A stretch of DNA of 53,288 bases from an uncultured Verrucomicrobiota bacterium. Lineage in GTDB: Bacteria > Auribacterota > JABMQX01 > JAFGEW01. The notes beneath the pieces are model-generated. The model worked only from the letters and a program-made list of their open reading frames with translations. It was not told the DNA's origin and did not search any database. Below, piece after piece: positions 149-33,204 of the stretch. A program made the translations under genes and the position numbers. Every line of letters starts with the position of its first letter. Position 1 is the first letter of the stretch. The stretch is from contig CAYUZG010000002.1 in the NCBI GenBank assembly GCA_964449605.1, positions 1-53,288 of the forward strand, written 5' to 3'.

Positions 149-566
149 TCGATTCCTCCTGCTCTGTGCGTCTTCCATGTCCACAAGCACAACCGTCGTC
201 TGCGTCAGGCTCCCGGCCGGCTGCGCGAACTGCGCCCCATGGCCCCCAGCGGCGTTCCGCGGCATGCTGGAGACGGCCGAAGCACGTCGAGCAGGTGCAA
301 GTTTGTTGCCAACTTCGAGCTGATGCCGGCGTCGAGAGCGGGCCTAGACCTTTCGAGGTCAGGCAGCCTGGCCGGGCCTCGATCACCACGCGCCGCGCTG
401 CTTGGTATGGCGCTCGCCGAACCGACCGGCAGTTTCTGCCGACGCGCGTCGCGATCGGGTTGCGGCCGGCACCCGAAACGCCTACCATCGGCACGGACGC
501 GGCCGGCCGACCGACACGTCGGCCAGGGCGCGACCGTGCGAACCCGAGACATGCAAGGGGCAAGCG

Positions 567-1295
567 ATGAAGACGGGAAACGGCGGCAGCGAGCGAGCGG
601 CGGCCATCGTGGCGGCAGCCGGGACCGGAGCCCGTTTCGGTGCGGCTTCGGGCGGCTCGCCGAAGCAGTTCCTCGATCTCGGCGGCGAGCCGATCCTCAT
701 CCGCTCGATCCGGGTCGTGCTCGCCTGCCGAGGGGTCGAGCTTGTCGCCTGCCCCGTGCCCGCCGACTGGCGCGCGCACGCCGAAGAGCTCGTCGCGGCC
801 GCGAGGCTGCCGGCGCGCGTTGTCCTGCTCGATGGAGGGGCCACGCGGCAGGAATCGGTCGCGCGGTCGCTGGAGGCGCTGGCCGGCCCCGACGAGCCGG
901 ACCTCGTCGTGATCCACGATGCCGTGCGCCCGTTGGCCACGGCCGAGCTGGCCCAAGCCGCTCTCGACGCAGCCAGGCAGCACGGCGCCGCCGTCGTGGC
1001 AACACCCAGCGTCGACACCATCGCCGTCCGAAGCGGCGAGCGGATCGAGGCCGTGCTGGAGCGATCGACGCTCCTGAACATCCAGACCCCCCAGGCGTTC
1101 CGCTACCGGCTGATTTGCGAGGCCCACGCCCGCGCAGCCGCCGACGGGGTCGCGGACGCCTCGGACGACGCCACGCTCGTGCTCCGGCTTGGGCATCGCG
1201 TGGCCGTCGTGCCGGGCCCTGCCACGAACATCAAGATTACCTCATCGGTCGATCTCGAGCTCGCCCGACTCCTGTTCGCCGGCGCGACGTCGTAG
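567..1295 (+). CDS. ispD: 2-C-methyl-D-erythritol 4-phosphate cytidylyltransferase
   Basis: Within ORF 402..1295. From ATG 567 the protein reads MKTGNG..AAIVAAAGTGARFG...PKQFLDLGGEPIL...VVIHDAVRP...QTPQAF...TNIKITSSVDLELA, the typical IspD motif order. The upstream Arg-rich part of the ORF is rejected. Confidence 0.85.
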   Translation: MKTGNGGSERAAAIVAAAGTGARFGAASGGSPKQFLDLGGEPILIRSIRVVLACRGVELVACPVPADWRAHAEELVAAARLPARVVLLDGGATRQESVARSLEALAGPDEPDLVVIHDAVRPLATAELAQAALDAARQHGAAVVATPSVDTIAVRSGERIEAVLERSTLLNIQTPQAFRYRLICEAHARAAADGVADASDDATLVLRLGHRVAVVPGPATNIKITSSVDLELARLLFAGATS

Positions 1296-1377
1296 GAGAC
1301 CGCCGATTCCCCACGGGTCGGCACGAAACTTGATCTCTGTCGCACTGTATTCCCTTGCCTACTCGAGGTCAGGCGCC

Positions 1378-2232
1378 GTGGAAAAGCCTCCCGAGAGAAC
1401 AGACAAGCACGTGGCCGTGGTCGACACGCCCGGCGACGAGCGCTCGGCCTGGCACGCCGCCCTGAGCGCCGCGGGCTGGACCGTGACCTGCTGCGACACG
1501 GCCGATGCCGCCACCGACCAGCTCGAACGGGCCGCGCCCGACGTGGTCGTCGCCGAGATCGGCCTTCAGCCCACGGGGGGTCTCGAACTGCTCAAGGTGA
1601 TCAAGGCACGGCGGCTTCGCACGCGAGTCATCTGCACCACGCGCGAGCACGAGTTGGGCAATGTGCTCGAATGCCTGCGCGGGGGTGCAGCCGACTACTT
1701 GAGGCGCCCGTTCGAGCCATCCGAGCTCGTGCGCGCCGTCGACGACGCAGCCGCCGCCACGCCCGACGACGAGTCGATCGAGATCGACATTGGCGAGATG
1801 GGCTGGATCGAGCTGCAGATGCCGTCGTCGGTGCGCTGCATGAGGCGGCTCGATAAGTTTTTCCGGTTGCTGTACGAGTCGGAGGTCGTGCCCGACACGC
1901 TCGAAGAGATCAGCCTGTGCTTCACCGAGATCGTCAAGAACGCGATCGAGTGGGGCCACCGCTTCGACGCGAGCAAGCGTATCCTGCTCAGCCACATGCT
2001 GTTTCAGGACGAGATCGTCTTCAAGGTCCAGGACACCGGCGCCGGATTCGACATCGGCCAGATGCTCGACGAGCACGAGGACCTGATCGCCATGGAGACC
2101 GAGCGCGAAGCGGCCGGCAAACGCCCGGGCGGCCTCGGAATCACACTGGTGGCGGGGTTGATGGACTCGGTGATCTACAACGCGACGGGCAACATGATCA
2201 TCATGTCGAAGAAGATCTATGACGCGGGCTGA
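1378..2232 (+). CDS. Atypical receiver domain fused to a GHKL ATPase / RsbW-SpoIIAB-like serine kinase domain
   Basis: Within ORF 1189..2232; GTG 1378 has GAGG upstream. The N-terminal REC-like fold reads VAVVDTPGDE ... DVVVAEIGLQPTGG ... VICTT ... RRPF. The C-terminus has an N-box EIVKNAIEWG, G1 DTGAGF and G2 GGLGITLV. Confidence 0.7.
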   Translation: MEKPPERTDKHVAVVDTPGDERSAWHAALSAAGWTVTCCDTADAATDQLERAAPDVVVAEIGLQPTGGLELLKVIKARRLRTRVICTTREHELGNVLECLRGGAADYLRRPFEPSELVRAVDDAAAATPDDESIEIDIGEMGWIELQMPSSVRCMRRLDKFFRLLYESEVVPDTLEEISLCFTEIVKNAIEWGHRFDASKRILLSHMLFQDEIVFKVQDTGAGFDIGQMLDEHEDLIAMETEREAAGKRPGGLGITLVAGLMDSVIYNATGNMIIMSKKIYDAG

Positions 2233-3145
2233 GCAGCTTGTCCACGACGAGCCGGGGCTCGGGCGGATCATCGAGTCGATCGAGCAGATCGGGTCGCTGC
2301 CGACCATCCCCGCGGCCGCGCACCGGGCGATGGTGGTTGCCCGCAAGGAGACCTCGTCGATGCGCGAGATCGCCGAGGTGATCTCCCAGGACCAGGCGCT
2401 CGCGGCCACCGTCCTGCGGGTGGTCAACTCCGCCTACTACGGGCTGCGCCAGCGGATCGGCACGCTGCCGCTTGCGCTCACCGTGCTCGGAGTGCGCGAG
2501 ATCATCAACCTCGTGCTCGGCGTCTCGCTTCTGTCGGTGTTTCCGGCCTCGTCGGACAGCGAGCTGTTCAGCCGCGAGGCGCTCTGGCGCGCGAGCGCCC
2601 AGTGCGCCTACACGGCCAAGAGGCTCGCGCACAGCGTCGGGCTCGGCCGCTTGGCCAGCGAGGCGTTTCTCGGCGGGCTCGTGCACGATATCGGCCTCAT
2701 CATCCTGGACGAATACCGGCACGACGAGTTCATCGAGACGCTGCGCAGCGCGCGGCAGACAGGTCTCGAATCGATCGCCGCTGAGATGGACCGGCTCGGC
2801 ACGACGCACGCGAGCATCGGGGCGTGGCTGGCCGAGAGGTGGGCGTTCCCGGAGCCGCTCGTCGAGGCGATCGCCTGCCACCATGATCCCACGAAGAGCT
2901 CGTGGCAGCCGCCGCTGACGCCCCTTGTCCACCTGGCCGAGCTGATCGTCGCGTTGCAGCAGCAGGCCGGCACTGTCGAAGAAGCCGCCGCAGCACTTGA
3001 AGCAGATCCGACGTGGGGGAGACTGCTCTCGCTCGGGCCGCCGGTGCGGCAACCACCGTCGACCATCGGCATGCTCGAGCAAGTGTGCGAGGAAATCGAG
3101 AGCGCGGCGCTCATCCTGGGCGTTGCGAGTTCCTCGCGGCGCTGA
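2219..3145 (+). CDS. HDOD domain signalling protein
   Basis: Motifs LPTIPAAAHRAMVV...VISQDQALAATVLRVVNSAYYGL...TVLGVREI...FLGGLVHDIGLIIL...HASIGAWLAERWAFPEPLVEAIACHH. The start overlaps the upstream stop by 14 nt. Confidence 0.8.
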   Translation: MTRAEQLVHDEPGLGRIIESIEQIGSLPTIPAAAHRAMVVARKETSSMREIAEVISQDQALAATVLRVVNSAYYGLRQRIGTLPLALTVLGVREIINLVLGVSLLSVFPASSDSELFSREALWRASAQCAYTAKRLAHSVGLGRLASEAFLGGLVHDIGLIILDEYRHDEFIETLRSARQTGLESIAAEMDRLGTTHASIGAWLAERWAFPEPLVEAIACHHDPTKSSWQPPLTPLVHLAELIVALQQQAGTVEEAAAALEADPTWGRLLSLGPPVRQPPSTIGMLEQVCEEIESAALILGVASSSRR

Positions 3146-4670
3146 ACGCAGCCACACCCGCATCATCCATACCCAGCCGGTCGAGGATCGCCCGTTTGAG
3201 CCGTTCGGCATTTGCGGGCGGCGCGGCAGCCCAGCGCTTGTCGAGGTGCGTCGGCACAAGCTCATCGACCTGCTCGACGAGCTGGACGTCGCGCACGCCC
3301 CGGATGGCCGCGCCGCGCGAGAAGAAGTTGTAGAACTCGCATTCGGGGCACGCCTGGACGATCCGTTCGAGCTCTCGCAGGTAGCTGTACAGGCTCTGGT
3401 GCGTTGGGATCGGCGCGCCGTAGCGGTCGGTCACGTGCACGATCTTGGCGAGCATCGCCACGAGGCGGTGGCGCACCTCGAGCGAGCTGAACCGATCGGC
3501 CTCGCCGAGCCAGCCACGGTTGCGCGCCAGGTTGGCCGAGTAGACCTTCCAATCGGGGAACGCGCAATCCTGGCCGACGAAAAACAGCTTGCTCACGCCG
3601 TAGCGTACGGCGAGGTCGAGCGCGACGCACGCGGCCGAGCCGCCGCTGGCCGTCACCCCTTTCGCCGCGATCAGATCCTCGACGGCCGAGACGATCGAAT
3701 GGCCCGTTTGCGCGGCGACTACCTTGCGTCCCGGGAAGCGCGCGACCACCTCGCGCGCCGTCGTCGGCAGGAAGATCAGCGTGCCGCCTGGTCGCGCATC
3801 GAGCGGGAAATGCTCCGTGCTCGTCGGCTGCGGATCGACGCTCACCACGAAGTCGGGCTCGATGCCCGCGCGGCACAGTGTGTCGCAGGCAGTGTCAACC
3901 GTGATGATCCACGCTCGGTCCTGGAACTCGGCCAGGTACGGCATCGCCTCATCGAGCGACGGGCCGGCGCTCACAAGGAACACCGGCCGGCCGGCCAGCG
4001 CCGGGAGCACCTCGGCCACGCCGGGACTCGCCACGACGGCGTCGAGGTTCGCCAGCAGATTCGTCATCGAGTTGCCCCGATGGACGACCGCGGCCGAGCG
4101 CTCGAGCTGGATGACCTCGAGCGCGTTGACGATCCGCTCGTAGCCGTCGGGCACCACCGAGAGCAGCGGCGTGTGGATCAGCACGCGTGACCGCTCCGGC
4201 GGCACGTTGGCGAACACGCCCGAAAGGTAGTCGTGCAGAACAACCGCGCCCTCGTGTTCCGACCCGGCCGTCACCAGCCACACGTTCGGCCGGTGGAGCA
4301 CGTCGCCGAGATCGCGCAGGTGGAAGGCCGCCGATAGGACGGCCCGGTTCAGCTCGAGGACGACGAGCTGCCCGGCGTCGCCAACGAGCTCGGCGACCGC
4401 CTCGGCGTGATACCCGAGGCCAAAACCGTAAAGCAGCACGTAGTCGCCGGCGCCGACGCCAGAGCGCTCGGCGAAGCGGCGCGCTTCCTGTCGAGGATCG
4501 TAGCGGCTGTGGAGCAACACGCCCCGGTACGAGATCGTCGGCTCGCCGGTGCGCGCCTCGTCGGTCTCGAGCTCAGGCGGCAGCTCGGCCAGGAGCAGCG
4601 GGACGAGCGCGCGCGCCCTCGGCCCGAGCGCGGCCAGGTTTGCGTCGAGATGCGACGCGGCCGGGTTCAT
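3111..4670 (-). CDS. Motility accessory factor (Maf / DUF115) putative flagellin glycosyltransferase, paralog 1
   Basis: DUF115 core reads RPVFLVSAGPSLDEAMPYL...AWIITVDTACDTLCRAGIEPDFVVSVD...GGSAACVALDLAVRYG...FFVGQDCAF. ATG 4670 overlaps the upstream stop by 4 nt. Confidence 0.8.
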   Translation of the reverse strand: MNPAASHLDANLAALGPRARALVPLLLAELPPELETDEARTGEPTISYRGVLLHSRYDPRQEARRFAERSGVGAGDYVLLYGFGLGYHAEAVAELVGDAGQLVVLELNRAVLSAAFHLRDLGDVLHRPNVWLVTAGSEHEGAVVLHDYLSGVFANVPPERSRVLIHTPLLSVVPDGYERIVNALEVIQLERSAAVVHRGNSMTNLLANLDAVVASPGVAEVLPALAGRPVFLVSAGPSLDEAMPYLAEFQDRAWIITVDTACDTLCRAGIEPDFVVSVDPQPTSTEHFPLDARPGGTLIFLPTTAREVVARFPGRKVVAAQTGHSIVSAVEDLIAAKGVTASGGSAACVALDLAVRYGVSKLFFVGQDCAFPDWKVYSANLARNRGWLGEADRFSSLEVRHRLVAMLAKIVHVTDRYGAPIPTHQSLYSYLRELERIVQACPECEFYNFFSRGAAIRGVRDVQLVEQVDELVPTHLDKRWAAAPPANAERLKRAILDRLGMDDAGVAAFSAARNSQRPG

Positions 4671-5680
4671 GGCTCCGCGCCTCCGGCAGGTTCGAACGCG
4701 AGGTCATAGCAGACGAGCCGGTGGCGCCACCCATCGAGGCACCACAGCGTGGAATCGCTGCCGCGCGCGCACGCGGTCACGTGCTCAATGCCGGGCAGGT
4801 TGAAGAACGCGAACGCGTTCCCGCCGTCGAAGAGCACGGCGGTGTGTCCCACGTCGGCGACCGCCATGAACAAGCCATCGCCTACGCCGGCCACGTTCGT
4901 CGGCACGAACCGAACGCCGTGCCGGGCGATGACCGGCTCGATCGTCTCATCTCCCGGCGTGCACGCCAGCACGGCGCCGACGCCAGGATCGGCGACGAGC
5001 ACGCGGCCATCCTCGGTTGTCGCAACGCCCTGCGGGTACTCGAGGCTCCCGAGCGCATACCCCTGCTCGCGGAAAAGCGTTTCGTGCGAGACGAACCGGT
5101 TCGAAAGCCCGCTCCACCACTGGAAGACGAAGCCGCGCTTGAACCCGGCCCCTTCGTAATACGCGCGGTCGTAGCCGCCGCGGCCGAGCGCGCCGAGCAC
5201 GGTGCCGTCCTGTGCGAAAAGCTGGACGCGGTGGTTCGAGCGATCGGCCACAACAAGGACGCCGTCATCGCACACGGCGATGCCCCACGGCTCGTTGAAC
5301 TCGCCCGGCTCCGGACCGTACCGGCCGACCATGCCAAGCACGTTCCCGGCGGCATCCAGGTGCTGCACGCGGTGGTTCCACCGGTCGGTGACCCAGAAGC
5401 CGCCCGCACCGTCCGAGACCGCGTGCGTCGGGTATCGGAACATGCCCGGCCCAGAGCCTTCCAGCCCGATGCGCCGCACGAGCGCGCCGCGATCGTCAAG
5501 CAGCGCGAGGCTGTGCTGACACTCGTCGACGACGAGCATGAGCCCGTCGTCCAGCGGGGTGACACAGCTCGGCCCAAGGAAGGTGCCGTCACCCACGTGC
5601 CAGCGCTCGGTCAGGACCGGGCGGGGAATCGGCGGCGTGCTGACGCGCGCGGTTGCCTCGATGGTAGCTGACATGCTCAC
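4667..5680 (-). CDS. NHL-repeat beta-propeller protein
   Basis: Repeated NHL blades: GPGMFRYPTHAVSDGAGGFWVTDRWNHRVQHLDAAGN, EPGEFNEPWGIAVCDDGVLVVADRSNHRVQLFAQDG, YPQGVATTEDGRVLVADPG. Start is GTG 5680 or ATG 5674. Confidence 0.7.
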   Translation of the reverse strand: MSMSATIEATARVSTPPIPRPVLTERWHVGDGTFLGPSCVTPLDDGLMLVVDECQHSLALLDDRGALVRRIGLEGSGPGMFRYPTHAVSDGAGGFWVTDRWNHRVQHLDAAGNVLGMVGRYGPEPGEFNEPWGIAVCDDGVLVVADRSNHRVQLFAQDGTVLGALGRGGYDRAYYEGAGFKRGFVFQWWSGLSNRFVSHETLFREQGYALGSLEYPQGVATTEDGRVLVADPGVGAVLACTPGDETIEPVIARHGVRFVPTNVAGVGDGLFMAVADVGHTAVLFDGGNAFAFFNLPGIEHVTACARGSDSTLWCLDGWRHRLVCYDLAFEPAGGAEP

Positions 5681-7008
5681 TTCGCATTCACGTGCGGGTC
5701 GGCCGCCAGGACGCCCGCGCGCTCCTCGCGCTCGAGCCGCACGATGTATTCTTCCTGGACGAGGAACTCTTCGGACGAGAACAGGCTGTCGAGCCCAACG
5801 AGCTTGCGCAGCATGTCGCGGATCACGAATCCCGGTGGCGGGCAGCCCGGCACATACAGATGGCCGTCACGCTTGGCTCGTTGGCACCGGCCGACGCAGA
5901 CCCACTTCTCGTCGCCGCCGTTGCGGTTCGCGAAATCATCGTTCTGCCCCAGCGAGATGTTCAGGTTCGAGAACCGGCTGCGCAGCAGGTCGAGGCTCCC
6001 GTCCTCATCCATGCGTTTGAGGGCCATCATGAGCCCGCCGAGGCAGTCGCTGCACGCGTCGCGGCATAGGATGTTCACGCCCTCATAACGGCCGCCCGCC
6101 AGCGCGTCGAACGGCGACTCGAAGTCGGTGCGCACGTCGGCGATCCGCTCGCCGACTACCTCAATGCGGCCCGGCTCGATCTCGCCGAGGCCGTGTTCCG
6201 ACGCCGCCCTAATGTGTCGGATGTCGTACGGCTCGAACCCCATCACGCGCGTAGCCACGGCGTCGACCGTCGCGCGCCGCGTCCCTGCGAGCACGAGATC
6301 CATCGGTTTCGCGGTGCCGCTCTGCGGCCCAAGCCCCTCGTGTCCCATGATGCCATCGACAACGATCAAGTCCACGGGGACGTGGCGGTTCACGTCGATG
6401 ATGGCGCCTTCGAGCCCGACGAGGTGCGACTTGCGCTTCGTGCGCGGCGAGATCACGCCTTTCATGTTCTTGAGGCTGATCGAGACAGTCGTGTGCACGT
6501 GCGTCTTGAGCAGCGGCACGTTGATGATCACGTCGCTCGTGAGCACCTCGCGCGCGACCTGGATGTTGCGCAGCGACTCGGGCTCGATAATATCGATCCG
6601 CTCGGTCGTGTCCTCATTCAGATCGACGAGACGCGCACCGCATCGGCGCGCCATCACGTCGTAGCCGGTCACCTGGAAAACCCGAGTGGTCGAGAGGCCC
6701 ACAGTCGTGCCATCGGCCACGACAATGTCGCCTGCGCCGGCCTCGCGTGCGATGTGGACCAGTGCCTCGACGACGGCCGGGTTCGTCGTCGCGCCCGAGC
6801 GCCAGTCCTTGTCGATGCACAGGTTCGGCTTGATCAGGACTTTCGCGCCGGGCCTGACGAAGCGCCGGACGCCTCCGACGAGGCCGACGGCTTGCGCGAC
6901 GGCATCTCGGATCCCGTTTGTTCTTTTGACTATGGCCACACGGTCCATTGGCTTCTCATCCGGTGCCGAGTACCGTGCCTCGGCCGCCCATACGGGCATG
7001 GTCACCAT
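5677..7008 (-). CDS. DUF362-family protein with a Cys-rich (probable Fe-S) C-terminal extension
   Basis: DUF362 core reads VAIVKR...GAKVLIKPNL...NPAVVEALVHIAREAGAGDIVVADG...DVIINVPLLKTH...SLKNMKG...LIVVDGIMGHEGLGP..G...TRRATVDAVATRVMGFEP. The C-terminus has CRDACSDC (CX3CX2C) plus CVGRC...GCPP. ATG 6948 (MDRVAIV) is an alternative start. Confidence 0.7.
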   Translation of the reverse strand: MVTMPVWAAEARYSAPDEKPMDRVAIVKRTNGIRDAVAQAVGLVGGVRRFVRPGAKVLIKPNLCIDKDWRSGATTNPAVVEALVHIAREAGAGDIVVADGTTVGLSTTRVFQVTGYDVMARRCGARLVDLNEDTTERIDIIEPESLRNIQVAREVLTSDVIINVPLLKTHVHTTVSISLKNMKGVISPRTKRKSHLVGLEGAIIDVNRHVPVDLIVVDGIMGHEGLGPQSGTAKPMDLVLAGTRRATVDAVATRVMGFEPYDIRHIRAASEHGLGEIEPGRIEVVGERIADVRTDFESPFDALAGGRYEGVNILCRDACSDCLGGLMMALKRMDEDGSLDLLRSRFSNLNISLGQNDDFANRNGGDEKWVCVGRCQRAKRDGHLYVPGCPPPGFVIRDMLRKLVGLDSLFSSEEFLVQEEYIVRLEREERAGVLAADPHVNAK

Positions 7009-7073
7009 CCACCACTTCGCTGCGTACAGGGCCGTTGTCTCGTTCGACCGAGGGCCGATCGCGATGAGACGAG

Positions 7074-7688
7074 CTAAATCGCGCGCACCTCGACACGATC
7101 CGAAATCGATCCCACTCGCTGCCGGATCTGGTTCTGGTAGCCGAACGAGGAGATGACGACGACCTCGGGGTGTAGTGCTGAAATAACCTCGGGCGGCTCG
7201 ACGAGAAGGCCGTTGATCGACCGGCCGTGCTTGCGCGGATCGCTATCGACGATCCCGGCAACGTCGAACCCGATTTCGTGGCCGACCGCGACGGCGATCT
7301 CGCCTGTCTCGGCCGCGCCATAGAAGACGACCCGCCGGAACCCCTCGTCGTAGATGACCTGAAGCTGGCGGCGGATCTCGTCCTTTGCGTGGATATACAG
7401 TCCCACAGTCTCATTGAGGTACTTGCGAAACAGCTCGGAGAGCCGCGCGTCACCCGCTTCGGTCAGGTGATAGCTCATGTTGCGGTTTGTCCGGCCTCGA
7501 ACGGCGACGTGACCGGCCTTGACGAACCCCTTGATGTAGTTGTTCACCATCGCCGGAACGATGCCGGCCAGCTTGGCCAGCCGCGACTGCGTCGTGTTGG
7601 ACTGCTGGTGGATGCCGTACAGCAGCACGAGCTCGCGGAACGCCGCGCTCGGCCGGAAGAACCGCAACTGCTTGTCACCAATCCTCAT
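7074..7688 (-). CDS. Winged-helix DNA-binding protein with a C-terminal Rossmann/CoA-binding-like domain (putative regulator)
   Basis: Within ORF 7074..7832, from ATG 7688. wHTH-like segment: TQSRLAKLAGIVPAMVNNYIKGFVKAGHVAVRG. Then RRVVFYGAAETGEIAVAVGHEIGFDVAGIVDSDPRKHG..INGLLV, reminiscent of Rex/NeuD-type nucleotide-binding folds. Confidence 0.5.
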   Translation of the reverse strand: MRIGDKQLRFFRPSAAFRELVLLYGIHQQSNTTQSRLAKLAGIVPAMVNNYIKGFVKAGHVAVRGRTNRNMSYHLTEAGDARLSELFRKYLNETVGLYIHAKDEIRRQLQVIYDEGFRRVVFYGAAETGEIAVAVGHEIGFDVAGIVDSDPRKHGRSINGLLVEPPEVISALHPEVVVISSFGYQNQIRQRVGSISDRVEVRAI

Positions 7689-7698
7689 TGTCCCGTCG

Positions 7699-9621
7699 CT
7701 ACCTATTCTGCCCCGTAACGCCCAATCCCTCGCTCGCGGACGACCCGGCCACAACGGCGCCTTCACGCGCCGCGATGCCCGCGGTGACCTCCCGCAGCAG
7801 GCCGATCCAGAATTCGGCTGCCTCGATGACATCGTCCACCACCGTCACAAACTGTCTCACCGCCTCCGCCTGCCCCTGGACATCGAGCCGCCCAACCATC
7901 GATGGGCTCGCGAGACGCCGATCGCGCATGATCGTCATGGCGCGCGTGAGCGCGTCGGCCAGCAGCTCGAACGCCTCCGTGTGGGACTCGAGCGCGGCGG
8001 CCTCACGTGCGTATCGCGTTTGCAGGCGCCGGATGCGCGCCGCGTCGCAGCGGCCCTTGCCGACCTCGTTGAGGATCGTCCGCAGCGTCGAGCGGCAGGC
8101 CGTCGCGTCTCGCACGACCGCTCTGAGCTCGCGCCGCATCGACTCGACCCGGCCCAGCGCGTGCTTGCCGCTCGTCGGTGTGGCGGCCGATGCGGCCGCA
8201 TCGAGAACGCCGTCGATATCGACGTGCCGCACGCACGTGCGCGCGATGAATTCCTTAAGCGTCATCGGCCGCGTGCCGGCGATTCGCGCGCCGCCCTCGG
8301 TCGCGTCGATGCAGCCGTCAGGCAGGCGGGCCGCCCGATCGTGCAACAGCTCCTCGAAATGCTTGAGGAAGACGACCATCGAGGCATGGCTGTTGACCGG
8401 CCGCCCGAAGATGTCGGGCACGACGATCACGTTGCCGGTGTCGGTGCCGCCCGCCTCGACGCGGCTCATCGCCGCGCCTTTGACGTGCGACATGTCGCCC
8501 GTGTAGGCAAGGTCCTGCCCGACGAGCGCCACGGGCCGGCAGCCCATCTCGAGCGCCAGCAGAAACGCCGTGTGCGCCACCGACAGGCCCTTGTCGAAGC
8601 CGCCGCGCGCGCCCACCGTCTGCGAGAACCAGCGCGAGGCCGACTTGTTCGTGATCTCGGCGTAGAAGCGCGTGCCTTCGAACGCGTCGAGGATGGGCGG
8701 GTAGATCTCCGAGTCGACCACGAGCCGCAGCGCCATCGTGTCGATCCCGCCGAAGTAGCGCATGTTGTTCGACGAGAAGTCGATGCTCACCACCAGGTCG
8801 GGCGCCACGCCGTGGTCGAGCAGCACGTGGATCGCCGTGTCGACGGCGATGATGACCGCCCGGCCCTTGGCGTGGGCGAGCTCGCGCACGTTCTTGCCGA
8901 GCGATGGCCCGGCCGACACAACGATGGCCGGCACACCGTCGAACGCACCGAACAAGCCGTTGACGCCCGGCAGGCCCATGGCGGCCGGCACGTTGCGCGC
9001 CATGTTGCGCGCGTAGTGGCGCCAGCTCTTGTCACGCGAGTTGTTGTTCACCAGCGCGTAGGTGATGGCATCCTGGAGACGCTGGATCAGCTCGTGGTAG
9101 TACACCGGGTCAAGCGCGATCGACGGCGGGTGTTTGATGGCCTTCAGCCCGTTGCGCACAAGCGAGCACTCCTCGGCGCGGACCATCTTGAACACGTCGA
9201 GCGGCGCGAGGCCCGCGGCGAAGAAGATGTTGTGCGCCTCGATCGCCGTCGAGAAATCGACCTGCTCGAGGCAGCAGCGGAAGCGCTCGAGGTCGGGCTC
9301 GACGACGAGCATGAAGTCGCGGTCGTGGTCCCGCTTGAGGTACTCGAGCACGTGGTAGCCCAGCCCCAGGCCGAGCGCGACGACGTTCTCGGTTCTGGCC
9401 TCGTCGTACTTGGCGGCCAGCCGCCGGGCTTCCTCAACCGGGTCCTGGGCGCTGTGGAGCAGCCTGGGGCCCTGGCCAGGCACGACAACGGCCAGCGTCG
9501 GCGGCCCGCTCTTCGATTCGCGCACGACGAGCGACGGCCCGACCGAGCACGCGCTCACGCGCTCGGCCAGCTCGGGCTGGCGTCGCCGAAGCACGTCGAT
9601 GTTTCGCTCGAAGATACCCAC
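7699..9621 (-). CDS. Motility accessory factor (Maf / DUF115) putative flagellin glycosylTransferase, paralog 2
   Basis: GTG start 9621. The N-terminus MGIFERNIDVLRRRQPELAERV is typical of Maf proteins. Core motifs: VPAIVVSAGPSLGKNV...AVIIAVDTAIHVLLDHGVAPDLVVSID...VAHTAFLLALEMGC..VALVGQDLAY. Confidence 0.8.
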   Translation of the reverse strand: MGIFERNIDVLRRRQPELAERVSACSVGPSLVVRESKSGPPTLAVVVPGQGPRLLHSAQDPVEEARRLAAKYDEARTENVVALGLGLGYHVLEYLKRDHDRDFMLVVEPDLERFRCCLEQVDFSTAIEAHNIFFAAGLAPLDVFKMVRAEECSLVRNGLKAIKHPPSIALDPVYYHELIQRLQDAITYALVNNNSRDKSWRHYARNMARNVPAAMGLPGVNGLFGAFDGVPAIVVSAGPSLGKNVRELAHAKGRAVIIAVDTAIHVLLDHGVAPDLVVSIDFSSNNMRYFGGIDTMALRLVVDSEIYPPILDAFEGTRFYAEITNKSASRWFSQTVGARGGFDKGLSVAHTAFLLALEMGCRPVALVGQDLAYTGDMSHVKGAAMSRVEAGGTDTGNVIVVPDIFGRPVNSHASMVVFLKHFEELLHDRAARLPDGCIDATEGGARIAGTRPMTLKEFIARTCVRHVDIDGVLDAAASAATPTSGKHALGRVESMRRELRAVVRDATACRSTLRTILNEVGKGRCDAARIRRLQTRYAREAAALESHTEAFELLADALTRAMTIMRDRRLASPSMVGRLDVQGQAEAVRQFVTVVDDVIEAAEFWIGLLREVTAGIAAREGAVVAGSSASEGLGVTGQNR

Positions 9622-9652: not shown

Positions 9653-10264
9653 TCAGGGCACCATGCCGATGAGTTGCTCGAGGAGTGCTCGCTCCTCGCG
9701 CAGCTTGGCGATCAACTCGTATTCGAGCAGATCGCTCAGTGCGACGAGATCGCCCTGCTCCATGGCTCGCTTGGTCTCCTGGAGGGCGGTGAGCAGATCC
9801 TCGTTGATGTTCCTGATCGTGCGGCCCTCGACCTCGACCTCTCCGGGGTCGTAGCCAAGGCACGCCTGCGTTGCCTGGAGCAGATGAATCACCTGGCGCC
9901 AATGCGTCAGGCACTCGCCGAACAGCGAGAACGCCTCCTGGCGCGCGCCGCACTGGAGCGCCGTGGCGACCTTGCCCAGCTTCTCCTCGAGGGCAGGCAG
10001 GCCGTCGCGCGTCTGCTCGAGCGCGGCGGTCAGCACCGCCGACGCGTCCTGCACCTGGAAGTCGATCACGTCGTCCGGCATCAGCTCGCGCTCGCGCTGC
10101 GACGCTTCTTGCTCCGGGCCGATCCGTTGGCCGTTCAGCACAAGGCCGACTGCGATCTCGTTTCGTTCTGACGCGGCACCCTGGACCGCGTCGATCAGCT
10201 CGCCGAGCGTGCGAACGCCGGACGAGGAGAGATCGACCTCAACACCGCCGATAGTTACCTGCAT
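9653..10264 (-). CDS. Hypothetical protein with a beta-grasp-like N-terminus and helical C-terminus
   Basis: ATG 10264 has AAGGA upstream. MQVTIGGVEVDL..VRTLGELIDAV....IAVGLVLNGQRI......LMPDDVIDFQV resembles the ThiS/MoaD sequence pattern. The rest is helical (LLEYELIAKLREERALLEQL). No family recognised. Confidence 0.5.
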   Translation of the reverse strand: MQVTIGGVEVDLSSSGVRTLGELIDAVQGAASERNEIAVGLVLNGQRIGPEQEASQRERELMPDDVIDFQVQDASAVLTAALEQTRDGLPALEEKLGKVATALQCGARQEAFSLFGECLTHWRQVIHLLQATQACLGYDPGEVEVEGRTIRNINEDLLTALQETKRAMEQGDLVALSDLLEYELIAKLREERALLEQLIGMVP

Positions 10265-11242: not shown

Positions 11243-11704
11243 CTAGGTGATAATGCTTACGTAGTTGTCCGACGGCGAGGAGGGATGGAGCCGCTCCTGC
11301 GGTTGGCCGCCCCGGAGCGCCTGCTCACCGCCGCCTTTCTCGAGCGCCTCGATCCAGGTTTGCTTTAGCTCGGTGAGGATCCGGATCGCCTCGTCGATGT
11401 GCTCCCGCTTACGCTGCACGTTGGCTTCGACAAGGCGCTGGATGACGTAGCTGTAGAGCCGGTAGAGGCCCTGGGCGATGTCGCCGCGCGACATGTCGAG
11501 CGAGTTCCTGAGCTCGCGCACCATGTTCTGCGCGCGGATCAGCGCCGCGCACGTCTCGTTCCGGCGGCCGGGCCCGAACAGCTCGCGGGCCTTGGCGCAG
11601 CCGGCGATCGCGCTCTCGTAGAGGATAAGGACCAGTTCCATCGGCGAGGCGTTCAGGATCTTGTTCCGCAGGTACGCCTTGGCCGGTTCGTGGGTGTCAA
11701 CCAT
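11243..11704 (-). CDS. fliS: Flagellar export chaperone FliS
   Basis: AYLRNKILNASPMELVLILYESAI...LIRAQNMVRELRNSLDM..GDIAQGLYRLYSYVIQRLVEAN matches the FliS pattern. GGGAGGG RBS. Confidence 0.85.
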   Translation of the reverse strand: MVDTHEPAKAYLRNKILNASPMELVLILYESAIAGCAKARELFGPGRRNETCAALIRAQNMVRELRNSLDMSRGDIAQGLYRLYSYVIQRLVEANVQRKREHIDEAIRILTELKQTWIEALEKGGGEQALRGGQPQERLHPSSPSDNYVSIIT

Positions 11705-11743: not shown

Positions 11744-13489
11744 CTACAACAGCGCCGAGGCGCTCGTGTTGTTGGCGCTCATGCTTTGCGTCAAGATAGC
11801 GTAGATACTTGTGCTCTGCGTCTGCAGTTGCTGGAACACGGCGAACAGCTGTTCGTACTCCTTGGTCAGCTGCTCCTCGCGGCGCGCGAGGGCATCTTCC
11901 TTGCGGCTGATCTTCTTCTCGACGCTGTCGATCCGATCCTCGATGTGCTCCTTGTGCTCGGTGATGTAGCCGCTGTACTGCTTCGTGTAGTCCTGGAGGT
12001 AATCGTACACCTCGTCCGCGAAGCCGCCGTCGTCGTAGAGCCCATCGCTGTCGGTGTTATAGGCGAAGAGCTGGAACACGTCGTTCGCGCTCTCCTCGAG
12101 CGCGTCCTTCAGCTCGTCGGGATCGAACGTGATCGTCTTGGCCTTCGTGTCGTGCTCGACCACGAGGCCAACCTCCGAGAGATACGAGAGGGCGCCCGGG
12201 TTATCGACGCCGGAGTAGACGAGCGAGCGCAGCCGGCGGCGCAGCGACTTGACCTTCATGTCGCCCTTGAGCGGGGAGTTCGCATCCGTCTCCTTCGAGT
12301 AGAGCAGGTCGACGGTCTTGTTGTACTGCGTGACGAACGCCTCAACCGCCTCGACCGCCGTGTCGGTGTCCTTGGCGACGGTGATCGACGCCGTGCCACT
12401 GCCGCGCAGGGTGAACGTCGTGCCGTTGATCGTGAAGGTGTTCGAATCGCGCGTCAGCGCCTGGCCGTTGAGCGTGAACGTCGCGTCGGTGCCTTCGTGT
12501 GTGCCCGTGGCGATCTGGAGCTCGGAGAACAAGCCCGCCGTGTCGTTCGACAGCTCGATCTCCTGCCCCGATTCGGTCGAGGTCAGCGTGATCTTGTCGT
12601 CGACGCTGTCGTAGAAGGCGAGCACGCCGGCGGCCGAGGCGTTGATCTCGTTGACCAGGTCGCTCAGGCTGTCCTCGGACACGTCGACGGCGAACGTGAT
12701 CCCGTTGATCGTGAAGTAGCCGTCGGTGACCGCCAGCGCCGTGTCCTCGATGTCCTTGTCATAGTCGGCGTAGTCGCCCGTCGTCTCGTCCGGGTCGGGG
12801 TTGCCGTTGCCCGAGGCGAGCTTCATCGCGTCGAAAAACCCGGTCGTGTCGTCCTCGAGGTTGATGAAGTAGTTCGGCCCGACCGTGTCCTGGGTGATCG
12901 TGACCTTGTCGCCGCTGATCGTGGCGGCGACCCCGGCGCCCGAGGCGTTGATCTTGCCGAGGATCGTCATGATCGTATCGCTGGCGGTCACCGTGATGAG
13001 CTTGGAGTTCACGTAGAACGTGCCGGACACAATCGACTTGTCGGAATCGAGGTCGACGTTGCCGCTGTCGATCCGCTCGTTGAAGTCGGCGTCGCTCCCC
13101 TCGGTGTTGATCTCCTCCCCGCTCGTGATCGACCTGTAGACGCCTTGGCCAAGGCCGAGCGCGCCGGACGATTGCGCCGTCGCGGCGGTGGCAAGGGTGA
13201 TGTCCGAAAAGGTGTAGGTGGTTTCCGACGCGTTCGTGCCCGCCTCTGCGGTGACGACTTCGGCATCGGAGCTTGTGGCCGTTTTCGACAGGAAGGTCGA
13301 CGCATCCCTCAGCGCGTCCAGCGCCGTCTGGAGTGCCTTGAGGCTGGTGCGGATCCCATCCCAGGCGTCGATCTGGTTCTCGTAGGTCTTCTTCTTGGTC
13401 TCGAGCGCTTGCAGGGGGCGGCTCTCGAGTGCCATGAGCTGTGCGACGAGATCTTGGATATCGTAGGTGTTGGTGACTGGCTGGAACAT
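11744..13489 (-). CDS. fliD: Flagellar filament capping protein FliD (HAP2)
   Basis: From ATG 13489 the protein reads MFQPVTNTYDIQDLVAQLMALESRPLQALETKKKTYENQIDAWDGIRTSL. The C-terminus has ...ITEHKEHIEDRIDSVEKKISRKEDALARREEQLTKEYEQLFAVFQQLQTQ, which is typical of FliD. Confidence 0.85.
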   Translation of the reverse strand: MFQPVTNTYDIQDLVAQLMALESRPLQALETKKKTYENQIDAWDGIRTSLKALQTALDALRDASTFLSKTATSSDAEVVTAEAGTNASETTYTFSDITLATAATAQSSGALGLGQGVYRSITSGEEINTEGSDADFNERIDSGNVDLDSDKSIVSGTFYVNSKLITVTASDTIMTILGKINASGAGVAATISGDKVTITQDTVGPNYFINLEDDTTGFFDAMKLASGNGNPDPDETTGDYADYDKDIEDTALAVTDGYFTINGITFAVDVSEDSLSDLVNEINASAAGVLAFYDSVDDKITLTSTESGQEIELSNDTAGLFSELQIATGTHEGTDATFTLNGQALTRDSNTFTINGTTFTLRGSGTASITVAKDTDTAVEAVEAFVTQYNKTVDLLYSKETDANSPLKGDMKVKSLRRRLRSLVYSGVDNPGALSYLSEVGLVVEHDTKAKTITFDPDELKDALEESANDVFQLFAYNTDSDGLYDDGGFADEVYDYLQDYTKQYSGYITEHKEHIEDRIDSVEKKISRKEDALARREEQLTKEYEQLFAVFQQLQTQSTSIYAILTQSMSANNTSASALL

Positions 13490-13550
13490 CGCCTGTCGTC
13501 GCTCCCGTCTGCCGCGGCGCAGTCGCACACCGCAGGCCGTCTCCGTCTAG

Positions 13551-13675: not shown

Positions 13676-14503
13676 TTAGCCTCCGAACAGGCTCAGGATC
13701 GAGTACGGCGCCGTGTTCGCCTGGGTCAGCATCGCCAAGGCCGTCTGCTGCAGAATCTGGTACTTGGTGACCGCCATCTGCTCCTGGGCGATGTCGGCAT
13801 CGGCGATTGTGCTCAAGCTCGCCTGCAGGTTGACCAGCTCGGTGTCGCTGACGTCTTTCTCGAACTCGAGACGCATGATCCAGGACCCGATCTGCTCCTG
13901 GTCCTGCACGAGGCGGTTGATCGCGCCCGAGATGTTGGTCAGCGTGGTCTCGATCTTCGTCGTCACCGAGCTGCTCGACGGGCTGCCGGTCACGTCGATG
14001 TCCGCCGCCTCGACACTGAGGTTGGCCGCCGTCGGCACGGCGCTGCCGCTCAGCGACACGTTCGACAGGTTGCCGAGCGTGAACCCGCTGTAGAGGCTCG
14101 GCGAGACACCGCTGTTGAGCACGTCGACGATCTCCAGGCGCAGCTCGTTGAGCTGCATCTGGAGGCCGACTCGCTCGGCGCTGGTGACACCACCGGCCTT
14201 CGCCTGCGAAGCGAGGTCGCTCATCTGGATGAGCATGTCGACCACGTTCGACAGCTTGCTGTCGTTCGTCTGGAGCCAGTTGACGCCACGCTCCAGGTTC
14301 TCATTGAACCGCTTCTTGCCCGCGATGTCCCGTTCGAACAGGCGCTTGACGTAGTAGCCCGACGGGCTGTCGGACGCGCGATTGATCCTCAAGCCGGTGG
14401 AAATCCGCTCGGCTGCCTTCACAATCGCGTCGTTGATCTTCGAGACCGTCAGATACGCGCGGAGAGCGGCGACGTTGGTGTTGATGCGTGCAAGGTCACC
14501 CAT
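13676..14503 (-). CDS. fliC: Flagellin (short, divergent), paralog 1
   Basis: From ATG 14503 (GGAGGA RBS): MGDLARINTNVAALRAY...ERISTGLRINRASDSPSGYYV...LQTNDSKLS...C-terminal IAQEQMAVTKYQILQQTALAMLTQAN. The upstream part of ORF 13676..14563 is rejected. Confidence 0.9.
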   Translation of the reverse strand: MGDLARINTNVAALRAYLTVSKINDAIVKAAERISTGLRINRASDSPSGYYVKRLFERDIAGKKRFNENLERGVNWLQTNDSKLSNVVDMLIQMSDLASQAKAGGVTSAERVGLQMQLNELRLEIVDVLNSGVSPSLYSGFTLGNLSNVSLSGSAVPTAANLSVEAADIDVTGSPSSSSVTTKIETTLTNISGAINRLVQDQEQIGSWIMRLEFEKDVSDTELVNLQASLSTIADADIAQEQMAVTKYQILQQTALAMLTQANTAPYSILSLFGG

Positions 14504-14510
14504 TAGTTGA

Positions 14511-14547
14511 TCCTCCCTGATTCTTCTCCCGGACGTCCTTGCCCGGG
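14511..14547 (-). promoter_or_regulatory. Candidate CsrA binding sites in the flagellin 1 leader (SD AGGGAGGA plus a hairpin-loop AAGGA)
   Basis: Minus strand reads cccgg-GCAAGGACGT-ccggg (14528-14547), then the SD tcAGGGAGGA (14511-14520). This places GGA in a hairpin loop and GGA in the SD. Confidence 0.4.
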
Positions 14548-14765
14548 TGAGTTCTTCAGGCACGCACTGTATGTGGGGCCTGATCTGTTTGCGACGACTG
14601 CGCGAGCTTGCGCTCGCGTGTCAGAAGAGGTCCCGTCTTCCTTCGTCGCATCCGCCGTCGTGGGCGGTCATCCGCTCCCAAGGCCCGCTCGCTGCTGCGC
14701 TATCACGCTCCTTTCTGTGGTCGGGGTCGTGTCAGAGTTCCGCTATCATTGCTTACTCGCGTCGA

Positions 14766-25634: not shown

Positions 25635-25706
25635 GACGCGCTCGGAGCCTCCGCTGCCGTCCACGCCCACCTGCACTGTGTGGGCTTTGCGCCGCGTCCG
25701 GACTGA

Positions 25707-28117: not shown

Positions 28118-28183
28118 CGACACGCCTCCAATCAACTGAATGTGCGTGGCCGCACCCAGGGTTCCCGCTGGCCGGCGCTCGCG

Positions 28184-33174: not shown

Positions 33175-33204
33175 GGGGGGATTCCGTCCTGTGTTACGGG
33201 CACG

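Follow-up and report, generated by a model that had tools for sequence, protein, structure and literature searches.

DUF362, NHL-propeller and Rex-like regulator genes linked to Maf glycosyltransferase genes in uncultured bacteria: probable accessory parts of flagellin glycosylation

The window (53,288 nucleotides of contig CAYUZG010000002.1, from an uncultured Verrucomicrobiota bacterium) encodes two Maf-type glycosyltransferases separated by three genes on the same strand, which raises the question of what a winged helix-turn-helix (wHTH) protein with a Rossmann-like domain, a DUF362 protein and an NHL-repeat propeller contribute to Maf function. A first-pass annotation of the sequence had proposed that the cassette is an accessory module of Maf-dependent flagellin modification; conserved linkage in other assemblies, every one of them an uncultured MAG or a metagenome contig, supports this proposal for a few uncultured lineages, with biochemical roles that we infer. 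The five genes are likely to close a late flagellar operon at its 3' end and to specify a single cytoplasmic module that O-glycosylates flagellin, using a CMP-activated nonulosonic sugar. The three inner genes stay linked to Maf in several distant lineages and so probably encode new accessory components of flagellin glycosylation. The literature searched ties neither DUF362, NHL nor Rex-like regulators to Maf flagellin glycosylation, in agreement with the earlier statement that no such role was known for DUF362 or NHL proteins.

A flagellar operon containing fliD and fliS ends with the genes for Maf2, the wHTH+Rossmann protein, the DUF362 protein, the NHL propeller and Maf1, all on one strand (Table 1). 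An ORF check of the window found the five minus-strand genes where the first-pass annotation had placed them, HMM searches agreed with the Pfam families that it had named, and the motifs that it had listed are all there (SAGPSL, VDTA and PD(L/F)VVS(I/V)D of the Maf proteins; CRDACSDC and CVGRC...GCPP of the DUF362 protein). Of the two 4-nt overlaps claimed earlier, that of the NHL gene with maf1 stands (ATGA), and the junction of the DUF362 and NHL genes is either a GTGA overlap or, alternatively, TGA-gc-ATG; in the orthologous locus L001, each of the two junctions is a 4-nt overlap. The gap from maf2 to the wHTH gene is 10 nt; the wHTH ORF as listed extends to 7832, and the start at 7688 is backed by 24/24 aligned homologues. 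The DUF362 protein probably starts at M21 (6948), matching the position where its orthologues begin.

Table 1. Features of the Maf locus and related genes in the window.
Feature	Position	Strand	Length (aa)	Domains and remarks
fliD	11744-13528	-		Pfam FliD_N, FliD_C; upstream part of flagellar cluster
fliS	11243-11704	-		Pfam FliS; upstream part of flagellar cluster
Conserved 203-aa protein	9653-10264	-	203	Directly 5' of maf2
Maf2-type glycosyltransferase	7699-9621	-	640	PF01973 and Maf_flag10_N
Rex-like regulator	7074-7688	-	204	N-terminal winged helix-turn-helix; C-terminal Rossmann-like nucleotide-binding domain
Long-form DUF362 protein	5677-7008	-	443	PF04015
NHL-repeat beta-propeller	4667-5680	-	337	PF01436
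Maf1-type glycosyltransferase	3111-4670	-	519	PF01973; last gene of the operon
HDOD gene	2219-3145			Convergent with maf1; overlaps the 3' end of maf1
Glycosylation island	27299-38175	-		Pfam

Both Maf proteins match the MptE-like/DUF115 family (PF01973; 7.8e-35 and 120.6 bits for Maf1, 7.5e-38 and 130.4 bits for Maf2, cut-off 34.6) and are just 24% identical to each other. Maf2 also possesses a Maf_flag10_N domain (PF20157, 1.3e-8, 35.1 bits versus a cut-off of 23.5), a PseD domain (NCBIfam, 3.7e-24) and, compared with Maf1, a C-terminal extension of about 120 residues; Pfam finds no PF20157 match in Maf1, and the Maf1 orthologue of L096 matches this N-terminal domain weakly. Orthologues of Maf2 (91-40% identity) are present in L008, L001, L002, L004, L171, L170 and L173, and those of Maf1 (92-37% identity) in L008, L166, L001, L002, L004, L171 and L096. 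According to Pfam, the window encodes three flagellins, FliD, FliS, FliW, NeuB and a CMP-sugar cytidylyltransferase (CTP_transf_3); since it has the flagellins, NeuB and the cytidylyltransferase, a Maf-type nonulosonate pathway is present. The glycosylation island, which contains genes for KduI, a UxaE-like protein, NeuB, the cytidylyltransferase, two radical-SAM/SPASM proteins, one GT2 and two GT1 glycosyltransferases, probably supplies the donor sugar. From its position 20 kb away, it would make a CMP-activated nonulosonic (sialic-acid-like) sugar, and Maf2 and Maf1 would be the two transferases that O-glycosylate flagellin in the cytoplasm.

The fliD/fliS order of the window is found also in L001, L002, L004 and L171. 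The conserved 203-aa protein has orthologues preceding Maf2 in L001-L004, L008 and L171, and weaker homologues upstream of Maf genes in L121, L122, L140 and L154, and is a possible partner of Maf2 beyond the coordinates given in the first-pass annotation; it has no Pfam match of its own, and its orthologues match DUF8042/TP0873_N. It looks helical, but an HH comparison shows no similarity to FliS, and it was rejected as a FliS/GlfM-like factor.

Genomic contexts in public assemblies were read for DUF362 proteins at least 55% identical to that of the window, which comprise the window clade, L004/L171 and L170/L173; all adjoin an orthologous NHL gene and a Maf gene, in three gene orders. Co-occurrence of the DUF362-NHL pair with maf in related genomes, on which the first-pass annotation had staked its proposal, is thus observed. 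Within the window clade (L001, L002/L009, L003, L008, L091-L094 and L166), the order Maf2-(wHTH)-DUF362-NHL-Maf1 is found in L001, L002, L003, L008, L091 and L166, and in part also in L092-L094. L004 and L171 keep the order of the window without the wHTH gene (DUF362 55-57% identical, Maf proteins 40-43% identical). L170 and L173 are rearranged (Maf2-CxxCxxCC-wHTH-GT2/TPR-DUF362-NHL) and possess no Maf1-type gene; thus, a strict partnership of NHL with Maf1 is not universal. Among DUF362-NHL loci, the NHL gene is directly 3' of the DUF362 gene and, where Maf1 occurs, directly 5' of Maf1. A lineage of 35% G+C (L096) has the NHL-Maf1 pair alone, with DUF362 not immediately upstream, and in L095 a Maf1 43% identical to that of the window has no NHL gene upstream. 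Divergent NHL orthologues adjoin Maf genes in L004, L171, L170, L173 and L096; full-length NHL orthologues are limited to the close clade, and beyond it only generic NHL matches are found.

The gene set recurs across contigs of 50-69% G+C, with Maf identity falling to about 40%, and the five-gene arrangement is beyond chance. In a neighbour-joining tree, a single clade unites the Maf-linked DUF362 proteins. All 78 of the more distant DUF362 loci are devoid of a Maf gene within 10 kb and of an NHL orthologue, the latter being found solely beside Maf genes; conversely, 73 of 80 Maf loci from metagenomes show neither DUF362 nor NHL, and the other seven belong to the window clade and L096. Only a few uncultured lineages carry the module; Maf systems in general do not have it. 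The flanks read of L170 (about 9 kb upstream and 3.6 kb downstream) and the contig flanks of L173 show no flagellar genes, so in these two the acceptor may be flagellin but need not be.

It is very unlikely that the three inner genes are passengers unrelated to glycosylation (a hydroxy-acid pair with a redox regulator, for example) that were inserted once and vertically inherited. Such a history would suit the restriction of the association to a few related uncultured lineages, and redox metabolism would suit a Rex-like regulator, but the association outlasts rearrangement into three gene orders and loss or gain of the regulator, holds at the Maf identity and G+C range given above (down to 35% with L096) and includes start and stop codons coupled to maf1. 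Distant long-form DUF362 genes do occur in ordinary sugar and hydroxy-acid metabolism contexts; distant homologues of the regulator, however, stand first in NeuB or glycosyltransferase (sugar or nonulosonate) operons, not beside redox genes, and the inner genes of the window bear no compositional signs of insertion.

The DUF362 protein matches almost the entire PF04015 profile (residues 57-253, profile positions 1-199 of 200, 1.4e-48, 166.1 bits versus a cut-off of 24). Its AF2 model (pLDDT 88.5) has the two-domain fold of LarA, the nickel-pincer lactate racemase, a feature that had not been part of the first-pass annotation: the top 19 Foldseek matches in the PDB are all LarA or LarA-like (E 5e-8 to 2e-5, probability 1.00), with global TM-scores against LarA chains of just 0.33-0.39, which differing domain orientation may explain. 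DUF362 and the DUF2088 domain of LarA belong to one Pfam clan (CL0471; PMC11770544); the DUF362 protein has no Pfam match to Lar_N/DUF2088, and neither phmmer nor a PDB profile search retrieved LarA chains with it. The residues invariant among 40 family members are K60, N62, K168, K180, N181, K191, H195, D218, D249, C319, C322, C375 and C389. H170 (at least 90% conserved) and the invariant K180 pair, in two weak hhalign runs (E=0.01, and E=4.4e-4 with a probability of 34%), with H174 and K184 of LarA, of which His174 is catalytic and Lys184 tethers the cofactor (PMC11770544). At the columns of H108, the second catalytic histidine of LarA, and of its phosphate-binding R75, the hhalign alignment, likewise weak, shows no conserved His or Arg in the DUF362 family, and therefore both look absent; on the same footing the invariant H195, 15 residues past K180, does not align with the nickel ligand His200. 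LarB, LarC and LarE are not among the Pfam matches of the scanned ORFs of the window.

The C-terminal four-cysteine domain, which has no Pfam match, probably binds a [4Fe-4S] cluster, judging from its sequence pattern. The first-pass annotation had suggested an Fe-S site built on six cysteines; the idea is retained for four, since C319, C322, C375 and C389 are invariant among the 40 family members and C315 and C371 vary. The resulting pattern (CxxC...GxC...PGCPP) resembles the [4Fe-4S] site of NuoB and hydrogenases, and seven of the ten best PDB profile matches are NuoB/NdhK or hydrogenase small subunits, at weak E values (0.7-2.4) and with printed alignments that cover PGCPP. With putative equivalents of H174 and K184 in a LarA-like fold and the four-cysteine domain, the DUF362 protein might catalyse a redox or epimerisation reaction whose substrate is the sugar acid donor or a precursor of it. 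In keeping with this proposal, the genes that recur beside distant DUF362 genes resemble, on reading of their sequences by eye, those for polyol or 2-hydroxyacid dehydrogenases and TRAP transporters.

The genomic contexts of related DUF362 genes bear on this proposal and also on a rather unlikely alternative, namely that the DUF362 and NHL proteins both serve as enzymes that make or tailor nonulosonates or sugar acids, that neither touches Maf or flagellin, and that they sit between the Maf genes because their product is the Maf donor. A sister-clade DUF362 gene (L007) is flanked by orthologues of the window genes for KduI (45% identical) and CTP_transf_3 (40% identical) in a Maf-free KduI/CTP_transf_3/radical-SAM/GT cluster, and L016 has the similar arrangement CTP_transf_3-ATP-grasp-DUF362. 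The retention of DUF362-NHL in L170 and L173 without a Maf1-type gene speaks for the alternative. L096, where NHL accompanies Maf1 without DUF362 immediately upstream, argues against it, as does the occurrence of NHL orthologues beside Maf genes and at none of the 78 distant DUF362 loci.

The NHL protein itself (PF01436, 1.3e-21, 75.9 bits versus a cut-off of 20, two repeats called individually) has the repeat motifs DRWNHR and DRSNHR conserved in its alignment. Its matches to the ScyF, Vgb lyase and SMP-30/gluconolactonase models would suit a lactonase or lyase of the donor pathway, but all are far below the cut-offs, its invariant residues mostly coincide with the generic NHL-repeat consensus, and, short of a systematic search, no catalytic residues stood out. 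Between the two roles offered by the first-pass annotation, lactonase-like enzyme and adaptor, we favour the latter, mainly by analogy with GlfM, the protein that Maf-2 of Shewanella requires; the lone NHL-Maf1 pair of L096 also suggests a GlfM-like role. As a protein-protein adaptor, the propeller would present flagellin, or the product of the DUF362 protein, to the short Maf1.

Binding of proteins or peptides is common among NHL propellers. This general habit would also fit a DUF362-NHL pair whose direct target is not a sugar but the flagellin polypeptide or Maf itself, with the pair making a non-glycan modification or serving as a redox-gated checkpoint. Both proteins appear to be cytoplasmic, their N-termini having no obvious signal peptide on reading, as is Maf glycosylation, which precedes export (PMC4065374). 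Nevertheless, such a role is highly improbable: the LarA fold suggests that the substrate is a small molecule, either a hydroxy acid or a sugar acid, as do the genes next to related DUF362 genes, and the closest DUF362 relative without Maf lies in a CMP-sugar cluster.

The wHTH and Rossmann-like domains of the regulator, as first annotated, hold, and the assignment can be refined to a Rex-like architecture: Foldseek matches its AF2 model (pLDDT 88.3) best to Rex-family repressors, which fill the top 20 places (E from 8e-7, about 220 aligned columns), and gives further matches of the Rossmann half to UDP-QuiNAc 4-dehydrogenase and KijD1. In sequence, it has weak Pfam matches to the MarR wHTH (1.4e-4) and, in the C-terminal domain, to Methyltransf_14 (3.9e-5), and weak NCBIfam matches to NeuD and Rex. 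Membership in the Rex sequence family was rejected on scores far under the NCBIfam cut-offs (19.1 and 16.8 bits versus 226 and 217), and no Rex-family Pfam model is among its matches. The glycine motif is G124-A-A-E-T-G129 (G-A-A-x-T-G), accompanied by an invariant D148. Homologues of 43-52% identity are located within sugar clusters (L088, L089, L170 and L173). The protein may be a ligand-sensing transcription factor that reads a nucleotide or nucleotide-sugar and tunes expression of the module; the intergenic region yielded no conserved operator, and for the regulator no conserved promoter was found either.

A more specific reading is put forward tentatively, as a doubtful one: DUF362 and NHL would constitute a new two-protein Maf unit, in which an enzyme of the LarA fold, equipped with a [4Fe-4S] cluster and a cofactor tethered to lysine, yields a novel epimerised or redox-tailored CMP-nonulosonate, the propeller delivers either this donor or the flagellin acceptor to Maf1 as the adaptor counterpart of GlfM, and a repressor of Rex architecture senses a nucleotide-sugar, not NADH. 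If true, it would be the first function assigned to DUF362, a large orphan family.

Compared with known systems, the window resembles the classical Maf islands of Campylobacter, Helicobacter, Aeromonas caviae, Magnetospirillum and Clostridium botulinum, which, as described in PMC3426422, PMC4065374 and PMC11339370, have several PF01973 Maf paralogs in a flagellar locus with a NeuB-type synthase and a CMP-transferase; the window has all of these. The DUF362 protein is similar to LarA in its two-domain fold, in the sugar and hydroxy-acid contexts of related genes and, on the weak hhalign pairing, in its His...Lys spacing, and differs from it by having no Lar_N match, no equivalents of His108 and Arg75 on a weak alignment, and a four-cysteine domain that is lacking in the L. 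plantarum LarA sequence compared. Rex proteins (PDB 1XCB, 3IKT, 3WG9 and 2VT2) are the best full-length structural matches of the regulator and share its size of about 205 aa and its wHTH and Rossmann domains, but the regulator has GAAxTG instead of GxGxxG, a Rossmann half resembling nucleotide-sugar-binding domains (3NKL, KijD1), and sugar and glycosylation genes as genomic partners.

The tripartite flagellin sialylation system of Shewanella oneidensis (GlfM-Maf-2; Unay, Kint and Viollier, bioRxiv 10.1101/2023.12.03.569772) likewise has two Maf paralogs around glycosylation genes within a flagellar island. Its Maf-2 has no flagellin-binding extension of its own and needs the small, cis-encoded GlfM, an 89-residue, FliS/FliT-like four-helix bundle usually encoded downstream of Maf-2 (bioRxiv 10.1101/2023.12.03.569772). 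Here, the short Maf1 is similarly accompanied by a coupled, co-conserved and non-enzyme-like protein, but the candidate adaptor is a 337-residue NHL propeller encoded 5' of Maf1; homology with the bundle of about 90 residues was rejected, and the proposed analogy is functional only. The Shewanella system has neither a DUF362 enzyme nor a regulator, both of which are present here.

Maf glycosyltransferases are the standard route by which flagellins are decorated with sialic-acid-like sugars. The five cassette genes exist with the identities assigned to them in the first-pass annotation, Pfam and reading of the ORFs being in agreement, and every sequence motif quoted there was found: PF01973 (Maf/DUF115) is present in both outer genes, with the Maf N-terminal domain additionally in maf2, and the inner genes encode a wHTH+Rossmann-like protein (204 aa), a DUF362 protein (443 aa) and an NHL-repeat protein (337 aa). 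Maf1 and Maf2 are only 24% identical and therefore represent two Maf subtypes; Maf2 has a C-terminal extension of ~120 residues. Of the two 4-nt overlaps originally described, that of NHL with maf1 (ATGA) stands, and at the DUF362/NHL junction there is either an overlap (GTGA) or a spacer of 2 nt. Between maf2 and wHTH lie 10 nt, and between wHTH and DUF362 65-125 nt, according to which start codon is taken; the DUF362 start is probably M21. The earlier reading of the cassette as an accessory module of Maf-dependent modification is supported by comparative genomics, with its details corrected and the functions unproven: the cassette is likely to be functionally part of Maf-dependent glycosylation, and the role of each single protein is considerably less certain.

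Features of the window discussed in the text
Feature	Position (nt)	Strand	Remarks
IspD-like cytidylyltransferase, response-regulator/HATPase_c_2 and HDOD genes	402-3145	+	convergent block
maf1	3111-4670	-	
NHL	4667-5680	-	
DUF362	5677-7008	-	
wHTH+Rossmann	7074-7688	-	
maf2	7699-9621	-	
orf203	9653-10264	-	203 aa, directly upstream of maf2
FliS	11243-11704	-	
FliD	11744-13528	-	
Flagellin	13676-14563	-	
Flagellin-family protein	15557-16480	-	probably FlgL, from its position beside FlgK
Flagellin	23868-24695	-	
Flagellin	24813-25736	-	
FlgK, FliW, FlgI/H/A/G/F		-	flagellar cluster
Glycosylation island			right of flagellar cluster: KduI, UxaE-like protein, NeuB, cytidylyltransferase, two radical-SAM/SPASM, one GT2, two GT1
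KduI and UxaE-like tagaturonate epimerase (701 aa)	27299-30289	-	adjoin NeuB and CMP-transferase
NeuB	30853-31917		
CMP-sugar cytidylyltransferase	31975-33174		399 aa
Radical-SAM/SPASM genes interleaved with GT2 and GT1 genes	33205-37081	-	
TPR protein	38091-40214	+	707 aa, opposite glycosyltransferase genes
Acido-Lenti-1 sRNA match	46871-46918	+	amid flagellar export genes
FliA-like sigma factor, FlhA, FliP, FliM genes			right of glycosylation island

The left half of the window (~67% G+C) is a minus-strand flagellar cluster, in which maf1 is the final operon gene, convergent with an HDOD gene. Inspection by eye of upstream regions for a sigma-28 motif gave no clear result, and translation of the flagellin genes probably starts further downstream than at the mechanically assigned start codons. 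Scans of 2-12 kb for sigma-70 promoters and terminators gave background level only, and Rfam found neither a riboswitch nor a leader over the cassette. Elsewhere, the Rfam match to the sRNA Acido-Lenti-1 scores 39.6 bits (gathering score 37); the family name suggests carriers among Acidobacteria and Lentisphaerae, which would be consistent with the nearest MAGs being labelled Verrucomicrobiota.

In the glycosylation island, the UxaE-like protein has an extra N-terminal region of ~210 aa. It is unusual to find uronate enzymes of the KduI/UxaE type alongside a nonulosonate pathway, and a KduI orthologue also adjoins the DUF362 gene of a sister clade (L007). The interleaved radical-SAM/SPASM genes suggest further unusual glycan tailoring; similar genes occur in the sugar clusters of L007 and of L088, a locus with a wHTH homologue. 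The 707-aa protein has a large C-terminal TPR array (residues ~314-700) and an unassigned N-terminal region of 300 aa; FlmG and Shewanella Maf-1 bind flagellin through their TPR domains.

The genomic contexts of 12 relatives of the DUF362 protein were read, and one genome per GTDB species was scanned. The close relatives (L001, L002/L009, L003, L008; DUF362 75-94% identical) all have the order FliD-FliS-(small ORFs)-DUF8042-like-Maf2-wHTH-DUF362-NHL-Maf1 and an HDOD gene in convergent orientation. Two divergent carriers (L004, L171; DUF362 55-57% and Mafs 40-43% identical, 50-53% G+C) retain Maf2-DUF362-NHL-Maf1 without the wHTH gene, and two others (L170, L173; DUF362 56-59% identical, 52-55% G+C) are rearranged to Maf2-type, CxxCxxCC protein, wHTH (50-52% identical to that of the window), GT2/TPR, DUF362 and NHL, with no Maf1-type gene and no flagellar genes in the flanks read. 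The CxxCxxCC (PF03692) protein and the GT2-TPR fusion lie between Maf2 and DUF362 (L170 6471-9004; L173 1663-4180), and the fusion is 36% identical to a GT2-TPR two genes 3' of the L088 wHTH homologue. At DUF362 identities of 48% or less the link to Maf is lost: L005, L006 and L172 have metabolic contexts, and within 10 kb of 78 further DUF362 loci, taken from species-representative genomes, neither a Maf gene nor the NHL orthologue occurs, so that the DUF362 family in general is not Maf-associated. The Maf-linked DUF362 proteins form one clade in a neighbour-joining tree.

From the Maf side, among 80 Maf loci of a metagenome scan, DUF362 and/or NHL occur only where Maf1 is at least 70% identical, whenever the upstream flank is present (L091-L094, L166), with L096 as the sole exception: on this contig of 35% G+C a Maf1-type gene (37% identical) is directly preceded by an orthologous NHL, and no DUF362 was seen in the 877 nt upstream. 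The other 73 Maf loci showed neither gene, and many of them have NeuB, CMP-transferase, FliS or FliD. A lack of co-occurrence of the DUF362-NHL pair with maf in related genomes, named in the first-pass annotation as grounds for abandoning its reading, is thus not what was found, since the pair and Maf stay together across three gene orders and despite wide divergence in sequence and base composition. This persistence through rearrangement argues against the inner genes being passengers, which is very unlikely. The module is lineage-restricted and no general feature of Maf systems; its carriers are uncultured and its phylogenetic range is narrow.

The block beside the cassette with IspD-like, response-regulator and HDOD genes is also kept in L001, L003, L004 and L171 (L171 14081-18447), and in L004 and L171 it additionally includes STAS, zinc-type alcohol dehydrogenase and CDP-alcohol phosphotransferase genes. 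The CDP-alcohol phosphotransferases beside the L171 cassette are fused to the Rossmann domain type of the wHTH protein (C2185-like/Methyltransf_14). The block may represent a second, CDP-alcohol-based modification pathway.

An AlphaFold2 model of the DUF362 protein built from 40 homologues was confident (pLDDT 88.5), and its best 19 fold matches in the PDB are all lactate/malate racemases or LarA-like nickel-pincer enzymes (E 5e-8 to 2e-5). This agrees with the placement of DUF362 in Pfam clan CL0471 together with the DUF2088 domain of LarA, to which DUF362 serves as outgroup (PMC11770544). The relationship to LarA came from the fold search only: PDB sequence searches with the protein and a 40-sequence profile returned no LarA chain, giving only a chance match to a phage-tail-like protein (E=0.07) and motif matches at E ~1. 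In profile alignments to L. plantarum LarA (reference sequence checked against 5HUQ; hhalign in local mode, the global-mode alignment being meaningless), both statistically weak, near-invariant H170 aligns to His174, a catalytic base of LarA, and invariant K180 to Lys184, its cofactor tether (PMC11770544); His108 and Arg75 are without counterpart in the weak profile alignment, and the invariant H195, 15 residues beyond K180, was not aligned with His200. A metal site formed by all six cysteines listed earlier is rejected because only four of them (C319, C322, C375, C389) are invariant in the 40-member alignment. These are ordered CxxC...GxC...PGCPP in the C-terminal domain. Most of the best matches in the PDB profile search (E ~1) were NuoB/NdhK and [NiFe]-hydrogenase small subunits, the printed alignments falling on PGCPP. 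In those proteins the PGCPP motif ligates a [4Fe-4S] cluster. Pfam gave no match to the isolated cysteine domain, orf203 or three other unassigned ORFs.

Recurrent neighbours of distant long-form DUF362 genes, judged from reading their sequences, resemble Zn-dependent polyol dehydrogenases, D-2-hydroxyacid dehydrogenases, TRAP transporters, GFO/IDH oxidoreductases and a TsaA/YaeB-like protein. The last, a ~140-aa TsaA/YaeB (TrmO)-like protein by the same kind of look, is the commonest (10/78 loci, L010-L087). True LarA homologues (motifs D-x-T/S-R-P, H...G-G-G-K and N-H) lie ~0.5-7 kb from long-form DUF362 on two archaeal MAG contigs (L012 1879-3201; L025 8191-9450), which hints that both clan members may act in related pathways. 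The closest non-Maf relative (L007) is flanked by orthologues of two sugar-island genes of the window, KduI (45% identical) and the CMP-sugar cytidylyltransferase (40% identical), and L016 has the order cytidylyltransferase-ATP-grasp-DUF362. Together, the fold, cysteine domain, neighbours and these two contexts point to a CMP-sugar pathway and to a small molecule, either a sugar acid or a hydroxy acid, as the substrate. L007 and L016 would also suit DUF362 and NHL both being donor-pathway enzymes only, which is rather unlikely given that L096 pairs NHL with Maf1. That the pair acts on the flagellin protein itself is the least probable reading of all, in view of the LarA fold and the relatives in sugar clusters.

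Full-length NHL orthologues are found only in Maf-linked lineages, the remaining matches being generic NHL similarity. The invariant residues are largely those of the NHL-repeat consensus, together with one distinctive conserved insert (GGYDRxYYEGxGFKxGY...W); models of lyases, lactonases and ScyF were matched at scores well under threshold, and no obvious signal peptide was seen when the N-terminus was read by eye. Orthologues of orf203 match DUF8042/TP0873_N and hold the position directly upstream of maf2 in every cassette locus with flagellar flanks, and weaker homologues (27-30% identical) lie just upstream of Maf genes at unrelated metagenome loci (L121, L122, L140, L154). Thus orf203 may be a partner of Maf2; it cannot be called GlfM-like because hhalign found no similarity to FliS.

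The AlphaFold2 model of the wHTH protein (pLDDT 88.3) has Rex-family repressors as its best full-length structural matches, with nucleotide-sugar-binding domains (3NKL, KijD1) as further matches to the Rossmann half; by sequence it is not a member of Rex. Homologues (43-47% identical) head sugar operons, in the order wHTH-hypothetical-NeuB-ATP-grasp-epimerase-NTP transferase-CMP transferase-FlbD-MotAB (L089) or wHTH-GT1-ATP-grasp-GT2/TPR-GH57 (L088). The Rossmann matches, these operons and the L171 phosphotransferase fusions make a nucleotide or nucleotide sugar a plausible ligand, and a family of Rex-like regulators has been identified that accompanies sugar clusters, not redox genes. Promoter and terminator scans and comparison of orthologous intergenic regions revealed no operator, and none can be proposed because the wHTH-DUF362 intergenic region is conserved in neither length (~26-125 nt) nor sequence.

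In the preferred reading, Maf2 and Maf1 would glycosylate the flagellins in the cytoplasm prior to export, as in the established Maf paradigm (PMC3426422, PMC4065374, PMC11339370). DUF362, judging by its fold, residues and neighbours, would carry out a redox or epimerisation step on a sugar-acid donor or its precursor; NHL, from its fixed adjacency and the GlfM precedent, may serve the short Maf1 as an adaptor, act with DUF362 as its partner, or do both; and the Rex-like protein would control these genes upon sensing a nucleotide-type ligand. The DUF362 family is very widespread and uncharacterised; the literature searched mentions it solely as outgroup to the LarA nickel-pincer enzymes, and, as first stated, no link of DUF362 or NHL to flagellin glycosylation was found there. 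With one DUF362 clade now assigned to a particular pathway and partner protein, its cofactor and chemistry become approachable by experiment, and the cassette, though restricted to uncultured lineages, offers a testable way into both the chemistry of DUF362 and the accessory factors of Maf.

Among known systems, GlfM-Maf-2, LarA, Rex and the classical Maf islands come closest; by sequence, the cassette proteins do not belong to the LarA, Rex or GlfM families. Recent work indicates that some Mafs need cis-encoded helpers: Shewanella Maf-2, which has no flagellin-binding extension, needs the 89-aa helper GlfM, whereas Maf-1 relies on its own TPR domain (bioRxiv 10.1101/2023.12.03.569772). The cassette, rated here as a Maf system for flagellin glycosylation whose accessory factors are encoded in cis, points to a different, larger helper set and provides a concrete, reconstitutable hypothesis for it.
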